Below are positions 45,373 through 58,771 of a stretch of 64,000 nt of DNA, in pieces. A program made the translations under genes and the position numbers. Every line of letters begins with the position of its first letter. Position 1 is the stretch's first letter. The notes below the pieces were generated by a model. The model was given only the letters and a program-made list of their open reading frames with translations, was not told the DNA's origin and ran no database searches. Where the stretch lies: positions 211,599 through 275,598 of the forward strand of contig JAUIFF010000001.1 in assembly GCA_030429545.1 (NCBI GenBank), given 5' to 3'. This DNA comes from Polyangia bacterium. GTDB taxonomy: Bacteria > Myxococcota_A > Polyangia > Nannocystales > Nannocystaceae.

Positions 45373-46437
45373 CTAGTTCGGCGGCGCCGATTGGGCTCCG
45401 GCTGTATCCGGAATATGGCTGGGAGCCGGCAAGAAGTCGGTCGAAAACGCGGCACTCGGATCGACCGATTTGGCTTCGAGCATGCCGGCCTCAACTAGTT
45501 GGTCATACAACGAAGACCAGCGCTCGAGTGTCATGGCCCCGGTCCCGAGTTTGGGCGCATCGCCGCCGGTGACAAGCGGGGTCAGGGCCGAGGCCCCGTA
45601 GTCGAGGACATCGATGGCCATCTCAGGGTTGAGCTGATGAATCTTCTTGTGGGTTGGTGCCGGGTCGGCGAGGTAGTGCTCCCAGCCGCGGACACTTGCA
45701 CGCACCATCTTGGCCACAGTCTCGCGATTGTCTTTGATCATGGCCTCTGAGGTAATCAACAAGCTGGCGTAGGGGTTGAAGCCGAGTTCCGAAACCATCA
45801 GGCAGCGGACCTTGGCACCCTTTGCCCGGGCGACAAACGGCTCGCTAAACACATAGGCCTGTTGGGCCATTTTGGTATCGACCAAAAATGCTGCGAGGTT
45901 GCCGGAGTAGGGGACAACCTTCACGCCCGTGAGTGGGGCGCGTCGCCGGAGAATTTGCGAAAACGGCTCCTTGGCGCCCATAGCTAGGGTCATGTCGGTG
46001 AGGTCACCAAGTTGCTCGACCCCGCTTTGCTCATGCACGAGGATACACCGCGGGCTTTCCTGGACAGGTGCCATCACAGCCACGAGCGGAGCCTGTTGAC
46101 CGCGGGCGAGCAAAACTTCGGCGGCTTCGGAGATACCAAAAGCGACGCGCCCGGTGGCAACCTGGGGCCCAACGGGGGCATCGGGACGACCGGGGATGAT
46201 CTCGACGTCGAGCCCTTCCTTGGCGTAGTAGCCATGGACGGCCGCGGCATAAAACCCACCGTGTTCAGCCTCGGGAAACCAGTTGAGCACCAACTTGACG
46301 GTCGACGATTTCGCCGTTTGTCCGCCGGCGTTCTCGGCCGACTTCTGGCAACCTGCGGACACAGCAAAAGTGCAGATACATGCAATCCCGAGAGCAGCTA
46401 CGAGCTTGCGATTGTTGTCCCGATTGGGTTGGCGCAC
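45373..46437 (-). CDS. NMT1/SsuA/TauA-like ABC-transporter substrate-binding lipoprotein
   Basis: Lipobox AVSAGC; LVLNWFPEAEHGGFYAA block typical of the NMT1/THI5 (nitrate/sulfonate/bicarbonate) substrate-binding family. Confidence 0.7.
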   Translation of the reverse strand: MRQPNRDNNRKLVAALGIACICTFAVSAGCQKSAENAGGQTAKSSTVKLVLNWFPEAEHGGFYAAAVHGYYAKEGLDVEIIPGRPDAPVGPQVATGRVAFGISEAAEVLLARGQQAPLVAVMAPVQESPRCILVHEQSGVEQLGDLTDMTLAMGAKEPFSQILRRRAPLTGVKVVPYSGNLAAFLVDTKMAQQAYVFSEPFVARAKGAKVRCLMVSELGFNPYASLLITSEAMIKDNRETVAKMVRASVRGWEHYLADPAPTHKKIHQLNPEMAIDVLDYGASALTPLVTGGDAPKLGTGAMTLERWSSLYDQLVEAGMLEAKSVDPSAAFSTDFLPAPSHIPDTAGAQSAPPN

Positions 46438-46458
46438 GGGGACGGTCTAACAGGCCGT

Positions 46459-47712
46459 CTAGGTCTCTCCAAGTAAAAAGACGGCGACGACTGTGAGGAG
46501 GAGCAACCCGACCAGGAGCAGCAGGCGCAACAGGTGGGAATTGGCGGACTCCTCCGGTCCTGAGTCTTCGTCGGGCAAAAACTGGAGGGTACTGGTGACC
46601 TCGGGATAGGGGTCGGTGGCCGGGTGTGGCGTGGGCAAGCGAGCGCCCGGGAGCATGTGCCGGCGTGTCGTCAACCTCCGGTAGGAGCGCCGCGAAGTCG
46701 AGCCTGCACTGTCTGACGAAAATATCGAGCCCTTGGTCAGGCTGTCCTCGGCGGCCCGAAGTTCCTGCGGGGAGTTGCCCGCGAGTTGGGTCGCCGACAG
46801 CAGCGCGCGTTCACTGGCGATCAGGGCCTCCGTCAGGGCGCGGGTGGTTTGGAAGCGTAGTTGCGGGTCCTTGTGTAGGGCCCGCAGCACAAGTGCCTCG
46901 AGTGGGGCAGGGATTCCGGCCGCGGGGGCGGCGTCTGAAAACGGAGGTGGTTGTTTGGTCAGGTGGCCGGCAACAATCTCGACCTCGTGTGAGCCCAAAA
47001 ACGGCAGGCGACCCGTGAGCATCTGGTACATCACCACGCCTAGGGCGTAGACATCGCTACGGGAGTCGGGTGGGTGCCCCTGGCAAAGCTCGGGCGCACG
47101 GTAGTGGGGATCGCTATTGTCTGTCCCCGAGGTCATGTGCGAAGACGACGAATTGGCGAGCACAAGCTTGGTGTCGTGCGACGTGCCAGTGAGCCCGAAG
47201 TTGACGATCTTGACAAGGTCGCGCGGGCCGTCTGTATCTACAACAATACAGTTGCGCGCGGTCAGGTTGCGGTGGATCAGTCCGTGCCGGTGAGCTGCGT
47301 GCAGGCCCCGGCAGATTTGCAGTGCCAGCCGGGTGGCGCGGACCCACGGCAATGGTCGCGAAGATTGCTGCAGCAACAACTCCAACGATGTGCCCTCGAT
47401 CCACTCTCCGACGAGGTAGTAGGAGCCATCCTCGGTTTGACCCCAGCCATGGACGGTTGCGATGTGTTCATGGGCGAGCATGGTCGCCTTGTTGGCAACG
47501 CCGGCCAAGCGCTGGGCAAATGCCTCATCCCCGCGTTGCGACTCGAACACTCGCAATGCGAAGGTTTCCCGATCGGGTGCACGTGTTGCCTCGTAGACAT
47601 CACTGAGATTGTCCTGGTCGATCCGCGGACCCAACGTCAGCGACGAGCCGACGACCTGGCCTGTGCGGGGCCCGGAGGTCTCATTGATTTGCGAGATAGC
47701 TTGCATGACCAA
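46459..47712 (-). CDS. Ser/Thr kinase-like protein, predicted pseudokinase, with C-terminal TM anchor
   Basis: Hanks-type fold with degenerate catalytic positions: HRNLTARN instead of HRDLKPxN, NFG instead of DFG, ALRV instead of VAIK, and a degenerate Gly loop. The APE box is retained. Confidence 0.65.
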   Translation of the reverse strand: MVMQAISQINETSGPRTGQVVGSSLTLGPRIDQDNLSDVYEATRAPDRETFALRVFESQRGDEAFAQRLAGVANKATMLAHEHIATVHGWGQTEDGSYYLVGEWIEGTSLELLLQQSSRPLPWVRATRLALQICRGLHAAHRHGLIHRNLTARNCIVVDTDGPRDLVKIVNFGLTGTSHDTKLVLANSSSSHMTSGTDNSDPHYRAPELCQGHPPDSRSDVYALGVVMYQMLTGRLPFLGSHEVEIVAGHLTKQPPPFSDAAPAAGIPAPLEALVLRALHKDPQLRFQTTRALTEALIASERALLSATQLAGNSPQELRAAEDSLTKGSIFSSDSAGSTSRRSYRRLTTRRHMLPGARLPTPHPATDPYPEVTSTLQFLPDEDSGPEESANSHLLRLLLLVGLLLLTVVAVFLLGET

Positions 47713-48072
47713 CGACGCTTCACCACGTATCCACAGTTTTGAGCCAGAATTCTAGCACCCAAACACTAGATTTGCTGGCAAACGACGTTCGTTTGTGAAA
47801 ATGGGTGATGCCCTGTCGGTTTCTCTCGGAGGTAGTGGCAGACGGTTAAGTTCCATTGCGCAAACTTTGCTGACACTGTTGTGGATTGATCGAAGGTTCA
47901 CTTCTCCGTTTGTATAGACTTTATGTGGCAACTGTGGTCAGCGTTTGCTGAGTACGCTTTCGCGCACATGTGCAACTCCCGCAGGTCAATGATCTCGAGC
48001 GGATCAAGCACGCCCCAAGGGGCTAAACAACCCTTGCGCTCGCGGCGGCCAGCGGCGTAGAAACAAGTCCTC

Positions 48073-51000
48073 GTGAAGCTTGTTCGTCGCGCCACCCTGA
48101 GCCACAAAGTCGGATCGACCGAAAAGGTCTACGAAGTCGAACTGTGTCGGGTCGCCAGCGGCAAGTTTCTCGTCAACTTCCGGTACGGGCACAAGGGCAG
48201 TGTCCTCAAGGAAGGGACCAAAACCCATCGCTCTGTCGCAGAAGCCAAGGCTCGCTCCATTTTTGCTCGACTCGTCGACGACAAAAAACGCAAGGGCTAT
48301 GTCGAGGCTGGGCAACCCCAACGGGTGGCGAAGAAGTCGAACAAAGGGTCGGGGTCGGCATTGCCGGCTTCGCCCGGGGATCGGATCAAGGGGATCATCG
48401 CCCGGGTCGAGAACCAAAATACGACGTCGTGGGCACTGTCCCGCGCGGTTTGGCGGGCTGGCGAGCTCAAGCTCAAAGAGGCCGTGCCCCACATGGTCAA
48501 GCTCGTTGGCTCGGGCTCATGGATGCTCCAGTACTGCTTAGCCTGGGCACTTGGTCGATGCGGTGACGCGACAACCTTTGAAGCCTTGCTGCGCACCCAG
48601 GGCAACGAGGTCGCGCTACTCAAGTGCGATAGTTGCCACAAGAAAAATCGGATTCCGTGGTCACGGTTTCCCACCTACGCTGCCAGCTGTGGCCATTGTG
48701 GGCAAAAGCTTCGCCGTGTCGATCGGCCGTTGAGCCTGGCGGCCGACTCGATTCAGGTGTTGTTTCCGGCGGCCTCCAAACATCCCGCAGTTGCGAGGAT
48801 GGCACTCGAAGCCGTGCGCGCCTGGGGTGGCGAGGCGGCCGAAAGTGTAGCTACATCGGTTTACGATTCGCTCCCGGGAGTCTTTCAACAGGCGCTCGAC
48901 AAAGAAGACGAAGACGCGTTTGCAGCTGCCCTCGAAGCCGAGTTGGCAGCACCCGGGCGTGATACCTGGACCATTTTAGAGCGGATCTACATGCTCGAGG
49001 ACCCGTGCATTCGCCCGGGCCTCCTCAAAGCACTGCGTACCCTCGACCTCAAACCCGGGGCGTTTCGGGCGATGCGACACATCTTTAAGCTCGCCGAAGG
49101 TCGGGGCGACGGCGAGGTGTTTGGTCTGCTCGCCTACCGGTTTGAGCGCGCGCGCGGGAACTTCCGCAACTCCCGTGTCTATACAAGTGTCCATGGGCGG
49201 TGGACCCGTGCCAGCACCGAGTTGGCCAAGGACGATTCGCGCCTGTGCTTTTCCAACACCACCCGCGAGTACATGCGCCGTCGCACCTGGCGGACGGTCC
49301 AGCGCTTGGGTGAGCTCGGCGAGGCCGAACAGTACGTGCGGATGGCGGTTGGTGTGTTGCTACCATTTACCGACACCGACGGCGGCAACGTCCGAAGCCG
49401 TCGCAGATACAACTACCGCACGCGGGGTTACACGACCGACTACTGGGATAAATTTTGCCAGTACGAGGCGTTTAACCGAGTCCTGTTTGACAACAGCCAT
49501 CGCTACGAGCGGCAGCATCGGGCCAAGTTGTGGCGTTGCACCGGCGGGTTTACGCCCGGTGATGCACTCCCGCAAAACCGCGAAGAGGCGTTTGCCGAGC
49601 TTTGGGACAAGGTCCCGGTCGGGCTGCTGCACTTGCTAGCCGAGAGCCGTTGCGAGCAGGTGCACGACTTTGCTTCGCGGGCGTTGCGGGCCAACAAAAA
49701 ATTCTGCGAGGGTCTCGATGTCGAAACCCTCACCATGTTGTTGGGTCGCGGGTACAAGCGCACGGTCCGGCTCGCGTTTGAGTTGGCAGTCGAGCGTTAC
49801 GACCCGCGCAACCCCGACATCGACTTGGTCGCAGCCATGGTCAACTGTTCGGTTGAGGAGGCACGGCTGCAAGCCCAGCGCTGGATCCATCAGGACCGTC
49901 AGCGGTTTTTGCAAGACCGTGGCCTCGTCGCCGACATGATCCTCTCGCAGCAACAGGACACCCGCAAGTTCACCGAGCGGTTGTTGGCGTCGGCCTCGCT
50001 CGATCCACTCGCCGCCGAGGCCTTGATCGCCACCGTGATTTCACGGCTGTTGGTCCTGTCGCCCGGCTTCAACGAGAACACGGCATTGGCCAAGGATGCC
50101 GGCGAGTTGTTGCTCAAGGTGTTTGCTCGGCCGCTGCGCTCGATCGGTTTGGGTGTTGTCGAGGACCTCGCCAAGCACAAGCTGGTGGCGCTGCAGCAGT
50201 TTGCCGCGCAAATCCTCGTGGCCCACGACACGCGCCCCCGCGACCTCCCCGAGGACTTGCTGGCGGCGGTCATGAACTCGATTCACCCAGACGTCCGCGG
50301 AATTGGCATCCGCCTGTTCGGTGAGTTGCCCGACCGCGAGTTGCTCGACCGCAAGGCCCTGATCCTCGCATTGGTGACCTCGAGGCAAGAAGATGTCCGT
50401 GAGGCCATCCGCCCGGTCATTCAACGGTTGGTCGGGACCTACCGCGAGTTTGCCGATGAGCTCTCGTCGCTTTTGCTCGCCAGCCTGCTGCGCAAGGAGT
50501 CCCACAAGGGGCTGCACAACTACCTCCTGCGGCTGTTTAAAGACGAGCTGTTGCCCTCGCTTCGGCACGTTCGTAAGCCGTTGGTGTTGCGACTTTTAAG
50601 GGCCCCATCGTCGGCTGCCCAGGAACTCGGTGGCTTGCTGCTCGCCCGCAACATCGACCCAGCCGAACTCACTGTGCGCGAGGTTGTACGGTTGGCCAGC
50701 CACGAGATTCGTTCGGTCCGCGAGGCCGCGTGGAAGTTTTACACCGACAACCCCGAGCGGATCCGTGACGAAATCGAAGAGGGGATCCGCCTGCTCGACG
50801 CCACCTGGGACGACTCGCGTGCATTTGCATTTGAGTGGTTTGGCACTGTGCTCGACAAGCACGACTTCGACCCGGATATTCTCGTGTCGATTTGCGATAG
50901 CGTGCGCGAAGATGTCCAGCAGTTTGGGCGCCGGTTGGTCACCCGCTACTTTACCGAACAAGACGGTCACGAGTACCTGTTGCGACTGTCGGAGCATCCG

Positions 51001-51378
51001 TCGTCGGAGCTGCAGATTTTTGCCAGCAACTACCTCGAAGACCACGCCAGCGGCTCGCTCGAGCGCTTGCGTGAGCTCGAGCCGTACTTTTGTAGTGTGC
51101 TGTCTCGGGTCAACCGCGGACGTGTGGCCAAAGCCCGTGTATTTGCATTTTTAGCTGCCGAAGCGCGCAAGTCCGACGAGGCGGCGGCGATGATTTCCAA
51201 GCTACTCACCCGGCAGTCGCTGACCATGGCGATCGGCGATCGGGCCAACTGCATCACCGGGATGTTGGAGCTCCATCACGAGCATCCTGACTTTGACATC
51301 CCGCTGCGGGTGGTGGCGGTGGAGCAGCGCACGGGCAAGTTCAGCAACTCAGCAGGGGAGGGGCAGCGTGGAGTTTAA
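48073..51378 (+). CDS. Large WGR-domain protein with extended alpha-helical (HEAT/ARM-like) repeat region; candidate retron accessory protein
   Basis: 1101 aa; N-terminal WGR-like domain (KVYEVELCRVASGKFLVNFRYGHKGS) followed by ~950 aa of predominantly alpha-helical repeats. Probable GTG start. Confidence 0.7.
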   Translation: MKLVRRATLSHKVGSTEKVYEVELCRVASGKFLVNFRYGHKGSVLKEGTKTHRSVAEAKARSIFARLVDDKKRKGYVEAGQPQRVAKKSNKGSGSALPASPGDRIKGIIARVENQNTTSWALSRAVWRAGELKLKEAVPHMVKLVGSGSWMLQYCLAWALGRCGDATTFEALLRTQGNEVALLKCDSCHKKNRIPWSRFPTYAASCGHCGQKLRRVDRPLSLAADSIQVLFPAASKHPAVARMALEAVRAWGGEAAESVATSVYDSLPGVFQQALDKEDEDAFAAALEAELAAPGRDTWTILERIYMLEDPCIRPGLLKALRTLDLKPGAFRAMRHIFKLAEGRGDGEVFGLLAYRFERARGNFRNSRVYTSVHGRWTRASTELAKDDSRLCFSNTTREYMRRRTWRTVQRLGELGEAEQYVRMAVGVLLPFTDTDGGNVRSRRRYNYRTRGYTTDYWDKFCQYEAFNRVLFDNSHRYERQHRAKLWRCTGGFTPGDALPQNREEAFAELWDKVPVGLLHLLAESRCEQVHDFASRALRANKKFCEGLDVETLTMLLGRGYKRTVRLAFELAVERYDPRNPDIDLVAAMVNCSVEEARLQAQRWIHQDRQRFLQDRGLVADMILSQQQDTRKFTERLLASASLDPLAAEALIATVISRLLVLSPGFNENTALAKDAGELLLKVFARPLRSIGLGVVEDLAKHKLVALQQFAAQILVAHDTRPRDLPEDLLAAVMNSIHPDVRGIGIRLFGELPDRELLDRKALILALVTSRQEDVREAIRPVIQRLVGTYREFADELSSLLLASLLRKESHKGLHNYLLRLFKDELLPSLRHVRKPLVLRLLRAPSSAAQELGGLLLARNIDPAELTVREVVRLASHEIRSVREAAWKFYTDNPERIRDEIEEGIRLLDATWDDSRAFAFEWFGTVLDKHDFDPDILVSICDSVREDVQQFGRRLVTRYFTEQDGHEYLLRLSEHPSSELQIFASNYLEDHASGSLERLRELEPYFCSVLSRVNRGRVAKARVFAFLAAEARKSDEAAAMISKLLTRQSLTMAIGDRANCITGMLELHHEHPDFDIPLRVVAVEQRTGKFSNSAGEGQRGV

Positions 51379-52999
51379 CTACCGCTACGCCGGTTCGACC
51401 GCGGTCGACTCGGGCGCCCGTTCGACGGACATGTCGTTTGCCCCCGATACCCATCGGGAGCCGACCTACTTCACGGGAGAGTTGCATAAGCAACTAGAGT
51501 TCCGAGAGGCGATTTCTGCCCTCCACGACGTTGTGGTTTCGGACCTGCGGTTCAAGCCCAAGGACAAAACGGCCTACAAAGAGTGGCTCGCCACCCAGGA
51601 GCAGGTCGACTGGCAACAGGTCGCCCAAAACCGCAGCCAGGTGCAGGCCGAAATCACGAGCACGCAACGCGAACTCAACGACCTGCAAACCCGCTTTCGC
51701 AACCGGATGTCGAGCTTTTACAAGGCCCGGCAAAAGTACTTCGACTACCTCTACAAAAAAGACCGCGACGCCTGGTTTGTTTTAGACCCGGTGATCACCG
51801 TCCACCCAGACCAGGTCTTTTTTGAGTGCTTTAGCCAGGACGAGTCGAGCTACGGCCGCCTAGGCTGCAACTACGAGGTGTTCAAGAACATCGGCGAGTT
51901 CGCCTGCGGGACCACCAACATCGACTACAGCGACGCGCTGTACAACGAGTTCCAAAAGATCCGTCGCTACAAAACCACCACGTTTCAGATCGACCCCGGT
52001 GGGTTTGATGTCGAAACCACCGGCGAAGACGGCTACCGCGAATGCAAGATCGACCTGCCCGACAGTTGGGTCCGCGGGTTTTTGCAAGTCAGCTCGGCCA
52101 TGACGCTGCCGGCAGTCCGCTTCGATTTGGAGCCGATGGACATTCACAACTTGTGCTTTGTCCTGCGTCGCAACCGCGAGCGTCACGGGCCACGCAGCAT
52201 GCGTTACAAGCTCAACCCCGGGCATCCCGTGCGGGTGGTGTTTGAGCCGTGGAATATCGAGGTTGTCTGCCCGCGTTCGATCTACAAGGGCGACTCCCAG
52301 CAGGAAATCCGCGTGTGGGGCCGTCGGCGGATCCACATCTTGGAGCGCCTGATCCCGGTCGCAAAAAAGTTTACAGTACATCTTTTAGGCCGTGGACTGC
52401 CCTCGTTTTACGTCGCCGATCTAGGCGATATGAACTTCACCCTCGGGCTTTCCGGATGGACCGCCAACGACTGGTCCAAGGCCGGCAACTTCGACCTGAT
52501 GGCCCCTCGGGCTAAGGTCGACACCCTCACCAAACGCCGTGTGTTTGACGCTCTCAAGCAAAACTGGCGCGAGACCCCGCAGAGCTTGGCCAGTCGGCTC
52601 AACCTCGACCGCAAACTCGTGTTGGGTGCGCTCGGTGCGTATACCCAGGCAGGACGTGCGATCTACGACCTCGACCAAGAAGTCTATCGCGTCCGCGAAC
52701 TCAGCCGCGACCCGCTGCCGATGGACAAACTGCGGTTTGCCAACGAACGCGAGCAACAGGCCAACCAGATCTGCGATCGTGGGCAGGTCAACGTCACGAG
52801 TGCCGACACGCGCATGAACGGAACCGTGACGGTGCGCGGACGCGTGTTGCGGTTCACCCCCGAACTTGTGATCGATCGCGACGAGCGGATGATCGACGCC
52901 CGCTGTAGTTGCAACTTTTTCTTTCAAAACAAGCTGCACAAGGGTCCGTGTGAACATATACTGGCCCTACGCATCGCCCACCGAAAGTCGCAAAAGTAG
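51368..52999 (+). CDS. SWIM zinc-finger protein; candidate retron accessory protein
   Basis: C-terminal CSCNFFFQNKLHKGPCEH matches the SWIM CxCx(n)CxH signature. The putative GTG start overlaps the upstream stop (GTGGAGTTTAA); an alternative ATG lies at ~51431. Confidence 0.65.
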   Translation: MEFNYRYAGSTAVDSGARSTDMSFAPDTHREPTYFTGELHKQLEFREAISALHDVVVSDLRFKPKDKTAYKEWLATQEQVDWQQVAQNRSQVQAEITSTQRELNDLQTRFRNRMSSFYKARQKYFDYLYKKDRDAWFVLDPVITVHPDQVFFECFSQDESSYGRLGCNYEVFKNIGEFACGTTNIDYSDALYNEFQKIRRYKTTTFQIDPGGFDVETTGEDGYRECKIDLPDSWVRGFLQVSSAMTLPAVRFDLEPMDIHNLCFVLRRNRERHGPRSMRYKLNPGHPVRVVFEPWNIEVVCPRSIYKGDSQQEIRVWGRRRIHILERLIPVAKKFTVHLLGRGLPSFYVADLGDMNFTLGLSGWTANDWSKAGNFDLMAPRAKVDTLTKRRVFDALKQNWRETPQSLASRLNLDRKLVLGALGAYTQAGRAIYDLDQEVYRVRELSRDPLPMDKLRFANEREQQANQICDRGQVNVTSADTRMNGTVTVRGRVLRFTPELVIDRDERMIDARCSCNFFFQNKLHKGPCEHILALRIAHRKSQK

Positions 53000-53047
53000 G
53001 GCGGCTTCAGGATTTACACCGGAGGAAGATCCAAGCATTTCAAGTTT

Positions 53048-53286
53048 TGTCATGACAGTGGCGGGGTAGGACCAGCCTTGCAGGAACGGGCGGCGGATCG
53101 CCGTCCATGCGATTTGCTCAATCATGCATCACTGGTTCGCTCTTTACTGTGCGGTACATCGGGGTAGCGGGACCATTCCAGTTCGGCTCCCGAGAAGCGA
53201 ATGTGTCCCGCTACCCCAAGTACCGCTGGAGTTGAGCGACCCAGTACTGAGAGCCTTCGAAGGCCCGACTCGCCACTGTCGTGACA
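53048..53286 (+). ncRNA. Candidate retron non-coding RNA (msr-msd) between the SWIM gene and the RT gene
   Basis: Bounded by a 14-bp inverted repeat (TGTCATGACAGTGG at ~53048-53061; CCACTGTCGTGACA at ~53273-53286, one G-U pair) followed by a G-run. It contains a small GC stem (GGGCGGC-ggatc-GCCGTCC) and a long hairpin GCGGTAC-atc-GGGGTAGCGGGAC...GTCCCGCTACCCC-aa-GTACCGC (~53151-53227). Confidence 0.5.
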
Positions 53287-53329
53287 CCTTTTTCCCGCTC
53301 GCATCCTGCGAGCACCTGTCCGGTTAGCC

Positions 53330-54886
53330 ATGTCTCAGCCCCGTACCCGCCAAGAGCTCTACGAACGGATCCGCGAATCCTCCAAAGATGAAGTCATCTT
53401 GGAGGAAATGATCCGCCTCGGGTTTTGGCCGTCCGGTGGCACCCTGCCCAACGACCCGGCCGACGAGATTCGCCGCCGCGGACAGCTGCAAAAAAAGCTC
53501 AACGACCTGCGGGCCCGTGTTCAGCGGATGTACAACGAGCGTCAGCTACTGGCCGATGCTCGCAAAAAACGCATGGCCGATGCCCGGCGGCGGCGGGTAG
53601 AGACCAAACAAAGGCGCGAGCAGGTACGGGCCGAGAAAGCCGCGGCTTGGGCCGAGCGCAAGAAACGTGAGCTGCTGTATTTGGGCGAAGAGGTTTCGGG
53701 TGCCCTGCAACATCGGTTGGCCAATCGCGACAAGCTCGCCGCCAACAAACTGCCGGTGTTTACCAGCCCCGAGGCACTCGCCAGCGCGATGCGTATACAA
53801 CTAAGCGAGCTGCGATTTTTAGCCTACGATCGCCAAGTTGCCAGGAGCCATCACTACCGCCGCTTTGAAGTGCCCAAAAAGACAGGTGGTGTCCGGCGGA
53901 TTTCAGCCCCGATGCCGCGGCTGAAGGCTGCGCAAACCTGGATTTTAAACCACATCCTCAAGCAAGTCCCGGTCCACGAAGCTGCCCACGGTTTTCGTCA
54001 CCACCGGAGTATCGCCTCCAATGCCCGACCACACTTGGGTGCGGACATTGTCATCAACATGGACTTGGAGGACTTCTTTCCCACGGTCACGTACCCCCGG
54101 GTAAAGGGCCTGTTCGTCTCACTCGGCTACAGCGAGTCGGTTGCGACCGTCCTGACACTGCTGTGCAGTGAGCCCGACGTCGAAGAGGTTGAACTCGACG
54201 GCAACCGCTACTTTGTCGCAGTCGGTCCTCGCCGTCTGCCCCAAGGGTCACCTGCAAGTCCCGCCCTCACCAACGTATTGTGTCGCAACCTCGACAAGCG
54301 ACTGGCCGGGTTGGCCGAGTCGATGGGCTTTACCTACACCCGCTACGCCGACGACCTGACGTTTTCTGGCGGTCGTGATGTGTCGCGGACCAGCTTGGTC
54401 GGGCGCCTGATTCGCGCAGTCGAAGACATCGTCGACCACGAGGGGTTCAAGGTGCATCCCAAAAAGACACGAGTGATGCGGCGGACAAAGAAGCTCGAGG
54501 TCACCGGTGTGACCGTCAACGACAAGCTCGGTGTCGATCGCAAAACCCTGCGTCGGTTTCGGGCCACGCTCTACCAAATCGAAAAAGACGGGCCCCAGGG
54601 CAAGCACTGGAATCACAGCGCCAATGTCTTGAGCTCGATGAACGGCTACGCAAACTTTGTGGCGATGATCGACCCCGAAAAGGGCCGAGAACTTCAGCGA
54701 CGCACACGAGCGTTGTTGGTCAAATATGGGCAAAAGCCAGTGGCTCCCCCCCCGCAGGCCGCAGCGCCCAAGGCGAGCCAGCCTCCTCCGCCCCCGCCCG
54801 CGGCGGCACCCAGCCCGTCAACGAGTCAGCCCGAGCCTGAGCCCGAGCCCAAGAAGAAAAAGAAGAAGCGCTGGAAGCTTTGGTAG
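53330..54886 (+). CDS. Reverse transcriptase, retron-type
   Basis: RT motifs IVINMDLEDFFPTV, LPQGSPASPALTN and YTRYADDLTF (YADD). Retron-associated NAxxH (SNARPH) and VTG (LEVTGVTVN) motifs. Unusual ~170-aa charged coiled-coil N-terminal extension and a Pro/Lys-rich C-terminus. Confidence 0.8.
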   Translation: MSQPRTRQELYERIRESSKDEVILEEMIRLGFWPSGGTLPNDPADEIRRRGQLQKKLNDLRARVQRMYNERQLLADARKKRMADARRRRVETKQRREQVRAEKAAAWAERKKRELLYLGEEVSGALQHRLANRDKLAANKLPVFTSPEALASAMRIQLSELRFLAYDRQVARSHHYRRFEVPKKTGGVRRISAPMPRLKAAQTWILNHILKQVPVHEAAHGFRHHRSIASNARPHLGADIVINMDLEDFFPTVTYPRVKGLFVSLGYSESVATVLTLLCSEPDVEEVELDGNRYFVAVGPRRLPQGSPASPALTNVLCRNLDKRLAGLAESMGFTYTRYADDLTFSGGRDVSRTSLVGRLIRAVEDIVDHEGFKVHPKKTRVMRRTKKLEVTGVTVNDKLGVDRKTLRRFRATLYQIEKDGPQGKHWNHSANVLSSMNGYANFVAMIDPEKGRELQRRTRALLVKYGQKPVAPPPQAAAPKASQPPPPPPAAAPSPSTSQPEPEPEPKKKKKKRWKLW

Positions 54887-55145
54887 TGCATTCGGCCCAA
54901 GCAGCAACGCTAGCCAGCTCGGCATTATCGCGGCGAACGAGCCGGAGAAGCCCTAGAAACTTAGTGCGTCCGGCCCCAAGTTGCTTAACTCGTTATCGCG
55001 GGCCGAGCCGGAGCCGGAGAAGAAGCTTTAGAAACTTTAGGTAGTGCGTCCGGCCCCAACTAACTCGTAATCGCCGGCGCCGAAGAAGATGCGCTAGAAC
55101 TTTGGTAGTGCGTCCGGCCCAGGGAGCGAGCCGGAGCCGAGGAAG
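54850..55145. repeat. Four degenerate ~70-bp direct repeats beginning at the 3' end of the RT gene
   Basis: Recurring gagccggag(aag)aagcgct.gaa.ctttggtagtgcgtccggcccca... units. The first copy includes the RT stop codon. Confidence 0.7.
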
Positions 55146-55372
55146 AAGCGCTGCAGTGGGTATCCGCAGTCACGCACCAACACGAATGGATCGTCCCCCA
55201 ATGGCACCGGGTCGCCTTCGATTTTGACCTCGGCTGTGACGACCCCGTTTCGAGACCCCCGAGGGCGACCGGTTTTTTGGCCGACAGAGCCAACCGTTTG
55301 GGCGTTGTCGCCAACTAAAAAAATATAATTGCCACCGATCGATCATCGCGGGCTCGTTACTTCACCCGTGTC

Positions 55373-58300
55373 ATGAGACCGAACCCCCGATGCTCCTGGT
55401 TGGCTGTAGTTCCACTTATCGCCCTTTCGCTTGCCTGTTGTTCACCTGCCTCAGACCTGCACTCACCGGTCACAGCAGCCGAGCCCATTGTCCAGCCCCG
55501 GGCGTTTTCGCTGCAGTTCGACACGGCCTCAGCTAGGTCTCAGCAGGCGCCGGCGTACCAGCTAACCACCAGTGATGGCACCGGACTTCGGCTCGTTTCG
55601 CTCAACGCTCGGGTCGCTATCGAAGACCCGTTGGCGCTGACCGAGTTGCACTTTGTGTTTGAAAATCCGCAGCCACGAACAATCGAAGGGCGGTTTGAAC
55701 TCGAGATGCCCAAGGGCGCCGCGATTTCGCGGTTTGCCATGAAGATCAACGACAGCTGGCAAGAGGGTGAAGTTGTTGAGCGTCAGCGGGCGCGTCGGGT
55801 GTTTGAGGACTTCTTGCACCGTCGCCAGGACCCGGCGCTGTTGGAGCACGACGCAGGCAACCGGTTTCGTGCGCGGGTGTTTCCGATTCCGGCAAATGGG
55901 CGCAAGGAGCTCATCGTGACCTATTCGCAGGAGTTGGGAACTGCGCCCGACCTCTACCGCTTGCCGCTTGTCGGCCTCCCGCAGCTCGATGAGTTGCAGG
56001 TGACCCTGGTGCAGGCGACGCGGGGCACATCGAACAAAAGTGTGTATACAAATGAAACAGCGATTGTGCATGCACCTACGGTCGGGGCGAGCAACTCGAT
56101 CCGCCGGCGTGCTTTTACGCCAACAGCCGATGTCGTGATCCACGAGCAGACTGGCGCACGCGAGCTCGGGATACGCCGCGGCGCGATGGCCATGGCTCGC
56201 GTCGAGCTGACCGCGGCGCCAGGAAAGACCTTCGAGGCTGCTCCCGTAGAGAGGGTGGTGGTGCTACTCGACACCAGCGCCTCGCAGACGCTCCGGCTCG
56301 CCGACACGCTCGCGCGTTTGCAGCAGCTTGTTGACCACTTGCAAAACAAGCGTCCGTTCGAGCTCCATGTACTTGCATTTGACCAGGAAGTTGTCGACAT
56401 CTATTCGGGGCCGAGTGGCGGGTTTGGTCTCGAGCAGCATCAGCGGGTGTTGCAGCGAGGTGCGTTTGGAGCGACGGACCTGGCCAAGGCGATGCAGACC
56501 GTGCGTGCCCGTAACCTCGAAGGCGCGCGGATTATCGTCGTTTCCGATGGGGTAGCGACTGCCGGTGTGGACGCGCCAGGTCGCCTCGGGGAGGTTGCTG
56601 CTGAGCTGCGGGCAGCCGGTGCGCACCGAGTTGATGCCATGGTGCCAGGTTCCAATAGCGATCGGGCAACCCTACGGGCGCTCACCGTGCCGACCAAGCC
56701 CGAAGGGGCCAGCGCCCGTGCCGGGATGACGCTCGACGCCCAATGGCCGACTGCGAAAGTTGCAAACTCCTTGCAGGCACAAGCTTTTACCAACGTTGCT
56801 ATTGATGTTCCAGGGAGTCGCTGGCTGTGGCCCCGAAGCCTAGATGGCGCACAGCCAGGCGATACGGTTACGATCTACGCCGAGATGGCCAACGCCAAAA
56901 ACATGCATGTGCATTTTCAGGGGGCAGCGCTCGCAGACAAGCAAATCAACCTGGCCTCGACACCCGGGCCGCTGCTCGAGCGCGCGTGGTTTGGCGCGCG
57001 AGTTGAGCACCTACTCGCCCAGTACGGTCACCTGCGAGACCGCGACCACCACGAGCAACGCCAGGCGCTCAAGCAGCATATCGTTGAGCTTTCCACCCAC
57101 TATCGCGTACTCACTCCGTTTACGGCCCTGCTGGTGCTCGAGTCCGAGTGGGACTACGAGCGCTATGGGATTGAGCGCCAAGCCCTAACCGACATCTTGA
57201 GTGTGGGGCCAAACGGTGTGGATGTGCTTGCTCGTACAAACACTTCTACCGCGGGCAGTTCACGAAGGTCGCAGGAGCCCACCCTTTCTGATGCATGGGA
57301 CAGCCCGGTGACCGAGCGCTTAGCTGGGCAAGACACCGATGGCGACGGCATTGCCGACAGCCACGACAGTTGCCCGAGTGCACCCGAGGCGCTCAATGGT
57401 TTCGAGGACGAAGACGGTTGCCCCGATGCAATCCCGATGCAAGTTGCCAGGTTTACCGGAACGATCAGGGGCATCCACTTCCCGCAAAACTCGGCCAAGA
57501 TCCAAAAGAAGTCTGCACCGGTACTCGACCGTGCGGCATCTGTACTCCAGGAATTCCCCGGGATTGTCGTCGAGGTTTCGGGGCATGCAAGCGCGGGAGA
57601 GCGGCAACCCGACAAGCTGGCAAAACGCCGGGCACAGGCGGTTGCCCGCTACCTGCGTGCCCACGGGATCGACAGCAAACAGGTTGTGGTGCGGGGTGCG
57701 GGGGTCAGCGAGCCGATCGACACCAACGAAACCAAAAAGGGTCGAGCGAACAACCGTAGGATCGAGTTTTCGTTGCGTTCGGGCGAATGGGTGCGCCGCA
57801 ACAATGCGGTGACACAGACCTGGGCACCAGCCCACTCAGGTAAGTACCAGGCGTTTCGCACATTGCTTGCACAGGAGCCCAACAAGTCACTTGTGCATGC
57901 AAAAACATGGCAAGCGAGCGAGCCCGGAAATGTAATTGCCCTGATCGCGCTCGCCGAGGCCCTCGAAGCTTCGGGGCAAACTGGCGAGGCGGCACGGGCC
58001 TACGGCTCGATCATCGATCTTTACCCGTCGCGTGCAGATTTGCGGCGACACGCCGGCCAGCGACTCGAGTCACTCGGCGTCGCAGGCCTAGAACTCGCGG
58101 CCGATACCTACAAAAAAGCGGTTGCCCAACGCCCAGACCATCCTTCGAGCCACAGGCTATATGCCTATACACTAGTACGTCTCGGTCGCCTCGAGGAGGC
58201 GTTTGAGGCGATCGTCGAGGGGCACAAACAGGAATATCCGCAGGGACGGTTTCGCGGGGTCAAACGCATCTTGAGCGAAGATATCGGATTGATCGCAGCC

Positions 58301-58771
58301 GCCTGGGCGAAGGCCGAACCCACGCGGCGAGCAGAGATCGAAACAAGGGCCCATCAGTGGGGACAGGCCCTGGCGAGTGAGCCCTCACTACGGTTTGTGC
58401 TGAGTTGGGAGACCGATGCCAACGACGTCGACTTCCATATCCGTGACGGCGCAGGCGGCCACGCGAGTTTCCGCCAACCCGCGCTTGAATCAGGCGGGGA
58501 GCTCTATGCCGACGTCACCACCGGCTACGGCCCCGAGTGCTTTGCCATCGATGGCGAGGCCACGGCGTTTCCGTACACACTCAACGCCCACTATTACCGC
58601 AAGGGCCCCATGGGCTTTGGTATGGGAACGGTGCAGGTACAAGCATATGATGGCAAGGGCAACCTCAGGTTTGCCGACCATCCATTTGTGATCATGAACG
58701 ACAACGCGGCGGTCGACCTGGGAACGATCGCCGAGCCGTTGTTTGAGGATGACACCACGGGCCGAAAGTGA
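55373..58771 (+). CDS. Large multidomain lipoprotein: VIT domain + vWA domain + thrombospondin-type-3 repeats/OmpA-like domain + TPR-like region
   Basis: Lipobox LSLACCS; VIT-like block (FENPQPRTIEGRFELEMPKGAAISRFAM); MIDAS VVLLDTSASQ; DTDGDGIADSHDSCP...EDEDGCPD calcium-binding repeats; OmpA-like ending NRRIEF. Confidence 0.75.
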   Translation: MRPNPRCSWLAVVPLIALSLACCSPASDLHSPVTAAEPIVQPRAFSLQFDTASARSQQAPAYQLTTSDGTGLRLVSLNARVAIEDPLALTELHFVFENPQPRTIEGRFELEMPKGAAISRFAMKINDSWQEGEVVERQRARRVFEDFLHRRQDPALLEHDAGNRFRARVFPIPANGRKELIVTYSQELGTAPDLYRLPLVGLPQLDELQVTLVQATRGTSNKSVYTNETAIVHAPTVGASNSIRRRAFTPTADVVIHEQTGARELGIRRGAMAMARVELTAAPGKTFEAAPVERVVVLLDTSASQTLRLADTLARLQQLVDHLQNKRPFELHVLAFDQEVVDIYSGPSGGFGLEQHQRVLQRGAFGATDLAKAMQTVRARNLEGARIIVVSDGVATAGVDAPGRLGEVAAELRAAGAHRVDAMVPGSNSDRATLRALTVPTKPEGASARAGMTLDAQWPTAKVANSLQAQAFTNVAIDVPGSRWLWPRSLDGAQPGDTVTIYAEMANAKNMHVHFQGAALADKQINLASTPGPLLERAWFGARVEHLLAQYGHLRDRDHHEQRQALKQHIVELSTHYRVLTPFTALLVLESEWDYERYGIERQALTDILSVGPNGVDVLARTNTSTAGSSRRSQEPTLSDAWDSPVTERLAGQDTDGDGIADSHDSCPSAPEALNGFEDEDGCPDAIPMQVARFTGTIRGIHFPQNSAKIQKKSAPVLDRAASVLQEFPGIVVEVSGHASAGERQPDKLAKRRAQAVARYLRAHGIDSKQVVVRGAGVSEPIDTNETKKGRANNRRIEFSLRSGEWVRRNNAVTQTWAPAHSGKYQAFRTLLAQEPNKSLVHAKTWQASEPGNVIALIALAEALEASGQTGEAARAYGSIIDLYPSRADLRRHAGQRLESLGVAGLELAADTYKKAVAQRPDHPSSHRLYAYTLVRLGRLEEAFEAIVEGHKQEYPQGRFRGVKRILSEDIGLIAAAWAKAEPTRRAEIETRAHQWGQALASEPSLRFVLSWETDANDVDFHIRDGAGGHASFRQPALESGGELYADVTTGYGPECFAIDGEATAFPYTLNAHYYRKGPMGFGMGTVQVQAYDGKGNLRFADHPFVIMNDNAAVDLGTIAEPLFEDDTTGRK

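Follow-up and report, generated by a model that had tools for sequence, protein, structure and literature searches.

The window analysed here is a 64,000-nucleotide (nt) stretch of contig JAUIFF010000001.1 (positions 211,599 to 275,598, forward strand; assembly GCA_030429545.1) from a Polyangia bacterium of the Nannocystaceae. As judged from its sequence, the segment 48073-54886 of this window is almost certainly one complete, co-directional type XIII retron (Mx162/Sa163-like, reverse transcriptase (RT) clade 10), with all four parts present in the order WGR-HEAT/ARM protein (open reading frame ORF1), SWIM protein (ORF2), msr-msd RNA and RT. Taken as a whole, this explanation of the locus is very probable; that the retron works through a complex centred on its multicopy single-stranded DNA (msDNA) is a working model. 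A preliminary description of the same DNA had picked out the two accessory genes as a pair of unusual domain composition sitting directly ahead of an RT. Their position was read correctly, the next gene carrying an RVT_1 domain and the motifs NARPH, YADD and VTG. The composition is the one by which type XIII retrons are defined (Mestre et al. 2020, PMC7736814), and the msr-msd RNA, which occupies the 330-nt gap separating the SWIM gene and the RT, went unmentioned. The main features are as follows.

48073..51378, + strand: ORF1, WGR-HEAT/ARM protein of cluster 216 (1101 amino acids (aa), GTG start; PADLOC WGR_XIII)
51368..51378, + strand: 11-nt overlap GTGGAGTTTAA, comprising the ORF2 GTG start and the ORF1 TAA stop
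51368..52999, + strand: ORF2, SWIM protein of cluster 114 (543 aa, GTG start; PADLOC SWIM_XIII)
53047..53287, + strand: msr-msd non-coding RNA (241 nt; a1/a2 arms, msr stem-loops and msd hairpin; from inverted repeats, fold, covariation and covariance model)
53330..54886, + strand: retron RT of clade 10 / type XIII (518 aa; RVT_1 5.9e-24; PADLOC RT_XIII)
54020-54034, + strand: RT motif NARPH
54344-54355, + strand: RT motif YADD
54500-54508, + strand: RT motif VTG

The locus is assigned to type XIII because the PADLOC models for this type match all three proteins: WGR_XIII matches ORF1 (E=0, 1134.6 bits), SWIM_XIII matches ORF2 (E=4.1e-245) and RT_XIII matches the RT (E=5e-190, 630 bits, with the next-best model at 315 bits). 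Type XIII, whose members include Mx162, Mx65, Sa163 and Ne144, is defined by its clade 10 RT together with two accessory proteins, one of cluster 216 (WGR-like domain plus HEAT/ARM repeats) and, encoded after it, one of cluster 114 (DEDE motif, winged helix and C-terminal SWIM finger, CxCx12CxH) (Mestre et al. 2020, PMC7736814). Each of these is found in the window. The RT has the NAxxH, YADD and VTG motifs and the N-terminal extension of clade 10, ORF2 has the DEDE motif and the SWIM finger along with a predicted winged helix, ORF1 is a cluster 216 protein encoded just upstream of the SWIM gene, and an msr-msd RNA with a1/a2 repeats and conserved structure adjoins the protein genes. The N-terminal extension of the RT is ~170 aa long (the RVT_1 match begins at aa 181), and such an extension is typical of RTs of the Mx162 group (Simon et al. 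2019, PMC6868368). The pairing of a WGR gene with a SWIM gene is the standard accessory module of type XIII and, as a class, ordinary. NCBIfam has no model for either accessory protein, and the RT scores below the cut-off of every retron model there. An RT of a group II intron or a diversity-generating retroelement was considered and rejected, as no Rfam group II intron match was found in 46000-56000 and group_II_RT_mat gave 72.7 bits against a cut-off of 300.

One genome per species was scanned with the SWIM family and the best 80 loci were kept (individual loci are denoted by L numbers); these come from Myxococcota, Cyanobacteria, Acidobacteriota, Planctomycetota, Bacteroidota, one gammaproteobacterium and two metagenome-assembled genomes (MAGs) labelled Clostridia. 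A retron RNA lies directly after the SWIM gene in 72 of the 80 loci, a WGR-HEAT gene is present in 60 of the 64 with at least 4 kb of upstream sequence, and an RT is found within 8 kb in 39 of the 57 with at least 4 kb downstream. The retron parts co-occur across at least six phyla. Together with the matches to retron-specific PADLOC models, these counts bear out the suggestion that the gene pair is functionally tied to the RT; a pair widespread without RT linkage, the pattern named in the preliminary description as a sign of chance adjacency, was not seen for this SWIM family. Identity among Myxococcota, Cyanobacteria, Acidobacteriota, Planctomycetota, Bacteroidota and Gammaproteobacteria is 64-77% for the SWIM protein, 50-62% for the RT and 33-56% for the WGR-HEAT protein. 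The closest relative is a Nannocystaceae MAG (L003; 77% SWIM, 62% RT and 56% WGR-HEAT identity), and the window is identical to two public Logan contigs. A search of representative sequences with the SWIM family, which carries no genomic context, showed the family to be large, with 1525 clusters reaching E<=0.001 and 407 of them E<=1e-30.

The elements of the msr-msd RNA are located as follows.

53048..53065, + strand: a1 arm TGTCATGACAGTGGCGGG (18-nt inverted repeat)
53269..53286, + strand: a2 arm CTCGCCACTGTCGTGACA (18-nt inverted repeat)
53131-53245, + strand: long imperfect msd hairpin (inverted repeat)
53075, + strand: candidate priming (branching) G, in CAGC (53073-53076), by analogy with Mx162/Sa163

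A short GC-rich stem-loop also lies between the two arms, and the predicted fold has a minimum free energy of -135 kcal/mol (z = -10 vs shuffles). In the regions upstream of the RT in related loci the arms differ in sequence and their span is alike (~220-265 nt). An RNAalifold alignment of 22 of these sequences yielded 53 consensus pairs, 38 of them with compensatory changes, and the covariance model built from it (R1), when run on the 80 loci, identified 90 copies in 72 loci, the window copy (53047-53287) scoring 208.6 bits. Across the 90 copies 95.6% of cells are paired and 43 of the 53 pairs covary, compared with 32-43% paired when the partners are slid by 1-3 columns. The structure is thus the one derived from 22 and then 90 homologous copies. 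A scan of 46000-56000 against Rfam (E<=1) gave no relevant match, and no family there matches the retron RNA. The primary transcript of Mx162 is reported to be 241 nt (Simon et al. 2019, PMC6868368), equal in length to the window RNA. For Mx162 and Sa163 the priming G is reported to be that of a CAGC found where the a1/a2 stem ends on its inner side (Simon et al. 2019, PMC6868368); by analogy, the priming G here is probably G53075, with G53066 and G53080 (the invariant G of CCUUGCA) as alternatives. Mx162 has 57 nt of msr beyond the G and an overlap of 8 nt; applied to the window RNA by analogy, these values predict an msDNA of ~130-140 nt.

A sigma-70-like promoter match (TGCACA-16-TATACT; 52935-52962), a match to consensus only, is found within the 3′-terminal part of the SWIM gene, ~85 nt before a1, and could be an internal promoter for msr-msd and the RT. 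The window contains a single msr-msd copy. Elsewhere, tandem arrays of 2-4 complete msr-msd cassettes are found in the gap separating the SWIM gene from the RT (L037:9712-10720 and L051:9702-10725, also L036, L072, L077, L080, L028, L040, L043 and L061). The copies of one array agree in the msr core and the base of the msd but have different a1/a2 arms and msd hairpin stems, the changes being compensatory; in such loci a single RT would be expected to produce several kinds of msDNA.

The GTG start of ORF2 overlaps the stop of ORF1, as the preliminary description had proposed; the overlap is 11 nt. A mechanically called ORF2 spans 51293-52999, from a TTG at 51293; the start is placed at GTG 51368 because homologues begin with MEFNY. 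GGGGAGGGG, which contains GGAGG, lies 5-13 nt upstream of this GTG. An identical -11 geometry ([AG]TG GAG TTT AA) is present in 24 of 66 related loci, in Myxococcota, Acidobacteriota, Planctomycetota and one gammaproteobacterium, and a GGAGG-like motif lies upstream in nearly all; 27 of the 66 have an ORF1/ORF2 overlap of any kind, and in cyanobacterial loci the two genes are instead 20 nt to 4 kb apart. At the sequence level, the 11-nt overlap implies translational coupling of ORF1 and ORF2.

ORF1 homologues align from residue 1 (MKL...), and two features of the protein stand out from its helical repeats.

48073-48312, + strand: WGR-like domain of ORF1 (aa 1-80), followed by a disordered linker and then the HEAT/ARM solenoid
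48625..48699, + strand: CxxC...CxxC zinc-ribbon insert of ORF1 (aa 185-209; motif, weak Pfam Zn_ribbon_Thio2 match)

The WGR-like domain at the N-terminus, claimed earlier from the letters alone, falls just short of recognition when full-length ORF1 is compared with Pfam WGR (19.0 bits, cut-off 22); the isolated N-terminus scores 24.9 bits, above the same cut-off, and all 57 homologue N-termini match PF05406 (best E 1.3e-12). The weak score is explained by the eponymous W-G-R motif, which reads Y-G-H in ORF1. The ORF1-family profile also matches the WGR domain of PARP2 and the bacterial WGR protein 2ra8 in PDB, and residues 1-76 form four strands and a helix in an AlphaFold2 (AF2) model. In PARP1-3 the WGR domain serves to read DNA ends and breaks. 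The remainder of ORF1, described beforehand as almost entirely alpha-helical repeat, is modelled with a mean predicted local distance difference test score (pLDDT) of 89.3 as an all-alpha HEAT solenoid, the exceptions being the zinc ribbon and two small beta inserts. The zinc ribbon, placed between HEAT repeats, occurs in only four of 79 homologues (the window's lineage and a Nannocystaceae MAG) and, on this distribution, is lineage-specific. A Foldseek search with the ORF1 model retrieved only generic HEAT solenoids (SF3B1, CAND1, karyopherins, mTOR) and was uninformative, and PDB sequence searches with ORF1 and with the SWIM family profile gave only noise or designed alpha-repeat proteins.

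ORF2 ends in a SWIM finger, also as first described.

52904..52957, + strand: SWIM zinc-finger motif CSCx12CEH of ORF2 (aa 513-530; motif and conservation)

The full-length protein scores 18.4 bits against Pfam SWIM (cut-off 19.6), PF04434 is present in many homologues, and C513, C515, C528 and H530 are invariant in 71 of them. As with WGR, the full-length score lies just under the cut-off and, on profile matches and conservation, both assignments hold at family level. The first 470 residues gave no fold in sequence searches (Pfam, NCBIfam, and PDB with the SWIM family profile). According to the AF2 model, a disordered N-terminus that is conserved in sequence leads into a beta-alpha unit at aa 34-57, and a long helical hairpin (67-131) follows as an insert. 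Aa ~140-361 (51785-52450) are predicted to form a two-domain clamp resembling PCNA, aa ~386-442 a winged helix and aa 474-541 the SWIM finger. In residues 250-361 the order of secondary structure, beta-alpha-beta(4)-alpha-beta(3), is the topology of a clamp domain; the first domain shows this order too, provided that the strand and helix at 34-57 count towards it and the hairpin 67-131 is taken as an insert. The clamp fold was found by two independent programs. Invariant R46, K197, R199, R267, R268 and R319-R321, and conserved K202, are in or beside four predicted clamp helices, which in the model occupy the positions of the channel-lining helices of a clamp. The model suggests that the SWIM protein is built around a PCNA/9-1-1-like two-domain DNA clamp, a resemblance of fold that is not a claim of clamp membership. 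Separately, the ORF2 N-terminus (aa 1-30, 51368-51460; MEFNYxYxG...) is near-invariant across phyla, including cyanobacteria with no constraining overlap, and is predicted to be disordered (pLDDT <40); it may be a docking peptide for a partner.

The RT also ends in a short conserved motif.

54851..54883, + strand: extreme C-terminal RT motif KKKKKKRWKLW (aa 508-518), following a Pro-rich low-complexity linker

In 21 of 46 full-length RTs, all non-cyanobacterial, the C-terminus takes the form KK-x-W-[KQ]-[LIVF]-[WF]-COOH and is preceded by a variable Pro/Ala/Gly-rich linker of 40-60 aa (besides the window, in L003-L007, L013, L016, L019, L021, L022, L029, L036, L037, L048, L051, L063, L070, L072, L076 and L077). 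Many polymerases and nucleases attach to sliding clamps via a flexible linker and a short aromatic and hydrophobic motif (PIP boxes, bacterial QL[SD]LF). Given a clamp-like partner, the resemblance of the RT tail to such tethered clamp-binding peptides of polymerases is suggestive, by analogy.

From known retron biology, the RT would bind the folded msr-msd RNA, prime from the 2′-OH of the G at the inner end of the a1/a2 stem and copy the msd hairpin, yielding a branched molecule of RNA and DNA, the msDNA, ~130-140 nt in size and with an extended duplex stem. The predicted structures suggest nucleic-acid binding and a scaffolding role for both accessory proteins, neither of which is an obvious enzyme; RT, msDNA, clamp-like SWIM protein and HEAT scaffold would form one ribonucleoprotein complex, with coupled translation setting the ratio of the two accessory proteins. 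That this complex is built on the msDNA is reasonably likely. As in other retrons, it would survey the condition of the msDNA, with phage interference triggering an action on DNA, and the chances that the window retron has an anti-phage role are about even. A tentative, more specific proposal is that the SWIM clamp either caps the msDNA duplex or rides along it, the C-terminal motif of the RT serves as a tether (to the SWIM clamp, the host beta clamp or the HEAT scaffold) and the WGR domain reads the msDNA end. If true, such a retron would imitate an assembly of primer-template, clamp and polymerase, and would sense phage or host replication or interfere with it, and the oldest known retron class would work via a DNA-clamp-like accessory protein and not a conventional toxin.

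Several points weigh against this interpretation. The clamp fold comes from one AF2 model with a pLDDT of 71 (56-84 in the first clamp domain), the alignment behind it is low in diversity (all sequences at least 67% identical), and an hhalign comparison between the SWIM family and human PCNA gave a probability of 1.3%, with no sequence-level support for a clamp. No toxin or enzyme domain can be recognised in either of the accessory proteins, so that the scheme of an msDNA antitoxin and a toxic effector is not simply transferable. Cyanobacterial relatives often have the RT several kb off or outside the available flank. The genes around the locus are housekeeping and signalling ones and GC content does not shift, conservation of the SWIM protein is unusually high for a gene of defence, and type XIII is reported to track 16S phylogeny (correlation 0.78), with domestication suggested (Mestre 2020, PMC7736814).

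The last three of these points are compatible with a non-defence role, and with the cross-phylum identities of the three proteins they favour a serious alternative, that of a domesticated, vertically inherited module whose msDNA serves cellular DNA metabolism (replication, repair, genome maintenance) and not anti-phage abortive infection. The folds present are also those of DNA replication and checkpoint proteins (PCNA/9-1-1, WGR). However, every retron type tested so far is reported to act in phage defence, PADLOC lists the type XIII family as a defence candidate, and the variability of the msd hairpins, like the tandem msr-msd arrays whose stems have diverged, has the look of an arms race. 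A domesticated module is regarded as less probable than not, though a serious alternative.

A second alternative concerns the SWIM protein, which could be a transposase-derived DEDE nuclease, a toxic effector with a metal-dependent acidic site, in which case the clamp model would be wrong or irrelevant; this reading of the DEDE residues is a published one (Mestre et al. 2020, PMC7736814). ORF2 does contain the motif (D140-x7-D148-x4-E153-x32-D186-x38-E225), which is invariant in 71 sequences and lies in the first clamp domain, the less confident part of the model. The fold search of the SWIM protein, however, gives no support for a transposase-derived nuclease, and this alternative appears unlikely, although nuclease activity could coexist with a clamp fold.

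Genes for FadL, histidine kinases, RlmN and an AI-2E transporter make up the wider neighbourhood of the retron, where GC content stays flat and tRNA genes are absent; the locus is not an obvious island. A vWA-domain gene lies downstream of the RT.

55373-58771: VIT+vWA+OmpA+TPR gene (1132 aa), 487 nt downstream of the RT

The preliminary description had stated that no ATPase or vWA partner was present. No MoxR-type ATPase is found among the annotated neighbours, in agreement with the first part; a vWA gene does exist, and was rejected as a partner since its sole match in the 80 loci is a short segment of the TPR region in L006. Its product is probably an unrelated envelope protein. An upstream Ser/Thr kinase gene and an NMT1 gene were likewise rejected as partners, not being conserved in the 80 loci (only short, low-identity kinase-domain matches). 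The remaining alternative, a stand-alone WGR-SWIM module of the MoxR ATPase/vWA type beside the RT by chance, would draw on this vWA gene and on the WGR/SWIM/MoxR/vWA clusters mentioned in the preliminary description, but is highly improbable given the full-length matches of both proteins to retron-specific models, the linkage to retron RNA (directly 3′ of the SWIM gene) and RT, which already refutes chance adjacency for this SWIM family, the additional VIT, OmpA and TPR domains of the vWA protein and the lack of a MoxR ATPase among the neighbours.

Two further arrangements were seen among related loci. In five cyanobacterial loci an RNase III gene lies immediately upstream of the RT (L008:8847-9533, L009:12479-13252, L011:11121-11840, L026:12757-13404 and L073:13278-13949), preceded in L009 by an NYN-domain gene; the RT in these five is 2-4.5 kb from the msr-msd RNA, which stays beside the SWIM gene. 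The RNase III could be a dedicated RNA-processing partner, or the RT could have been relocated beside rnc by chance. In L025, L068 and L079 (8 kb downstream available), and in L027, L035, L044 and L081, neither msr-msd RNA nor RT is found within the available flank, and these SWIM loci may be decayed or split systems.

The class to which the window retron belongs is already catalogued (described in 2020 and modelled in PADLOC, which would annotate the locus automatically). The first retron to be discovered (Mx162, 1984) belongs to type XIII, which ranks third in abundance among retrons in a recent metagenome survey. Open-access papers and bioRxiv yielded no mechanism, phenotype, structure or experimental test for type XIII retrons or their accessory proteins, and no link between retrons and clamps, an absence that is not proof. 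The predicted PCNA-like core of the SWIM protein, the conserved RT C-terminal tail and the diversified hairpins of tandem msr-msd arrays are offered as leads and not as results.

In having an RT, an msr-msd RNA and accessory protein(s) in one operon, the locus resembles Eco1/Ec86 (type II-A), Ec78 (type I-A), Eco8 and Eco2. In those systems the msDNA scaffolds and restrains an effector that is a recognisable enzyme (N-glycosidase/NADase, PtuAB ATPase-HNH, OLD nuclease and Toprim), whereas the type XIII accessory proteins have no recognisable catalytic domain. WGR and SWIM genes also cluster with MoxR ATPase and vWA genes (E. coli MolR/YehQ-type neighbourhoods). The WGR and SWIM genes are likewise side by side in those clusters, but in the window there is no MoxR ATPase or cognate vWA gene, and the partners are instead an RT and an msr-msd RNA. 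The SWIM protein has no detectable sequence similarity to PCNA, 9-1-1, beta clamps or herpesvirus processivity factors and differs from them in its long helical-hairpin insert, fused winged helix and SWIM finger. The closest comparison is with the type XIII retrons Retron-Mxa1 (Mx162), Mxa2 (Mx65), Sau1 (Sa163) and Nex2 (Ne144), with which the window shares the gene set, an RNA of ~241 nt and the CAGC context of the priming G, as well as a myxobacterial host and a genomic setting that looks vertically inherited. The predicted msDNA is shorter than that of Mx162 (162 nt), and the window represents a different lineage, with its own zinc-ribbon insert in ORF1, Y-G-H version of the WGR motif and msd hairpin sequence.

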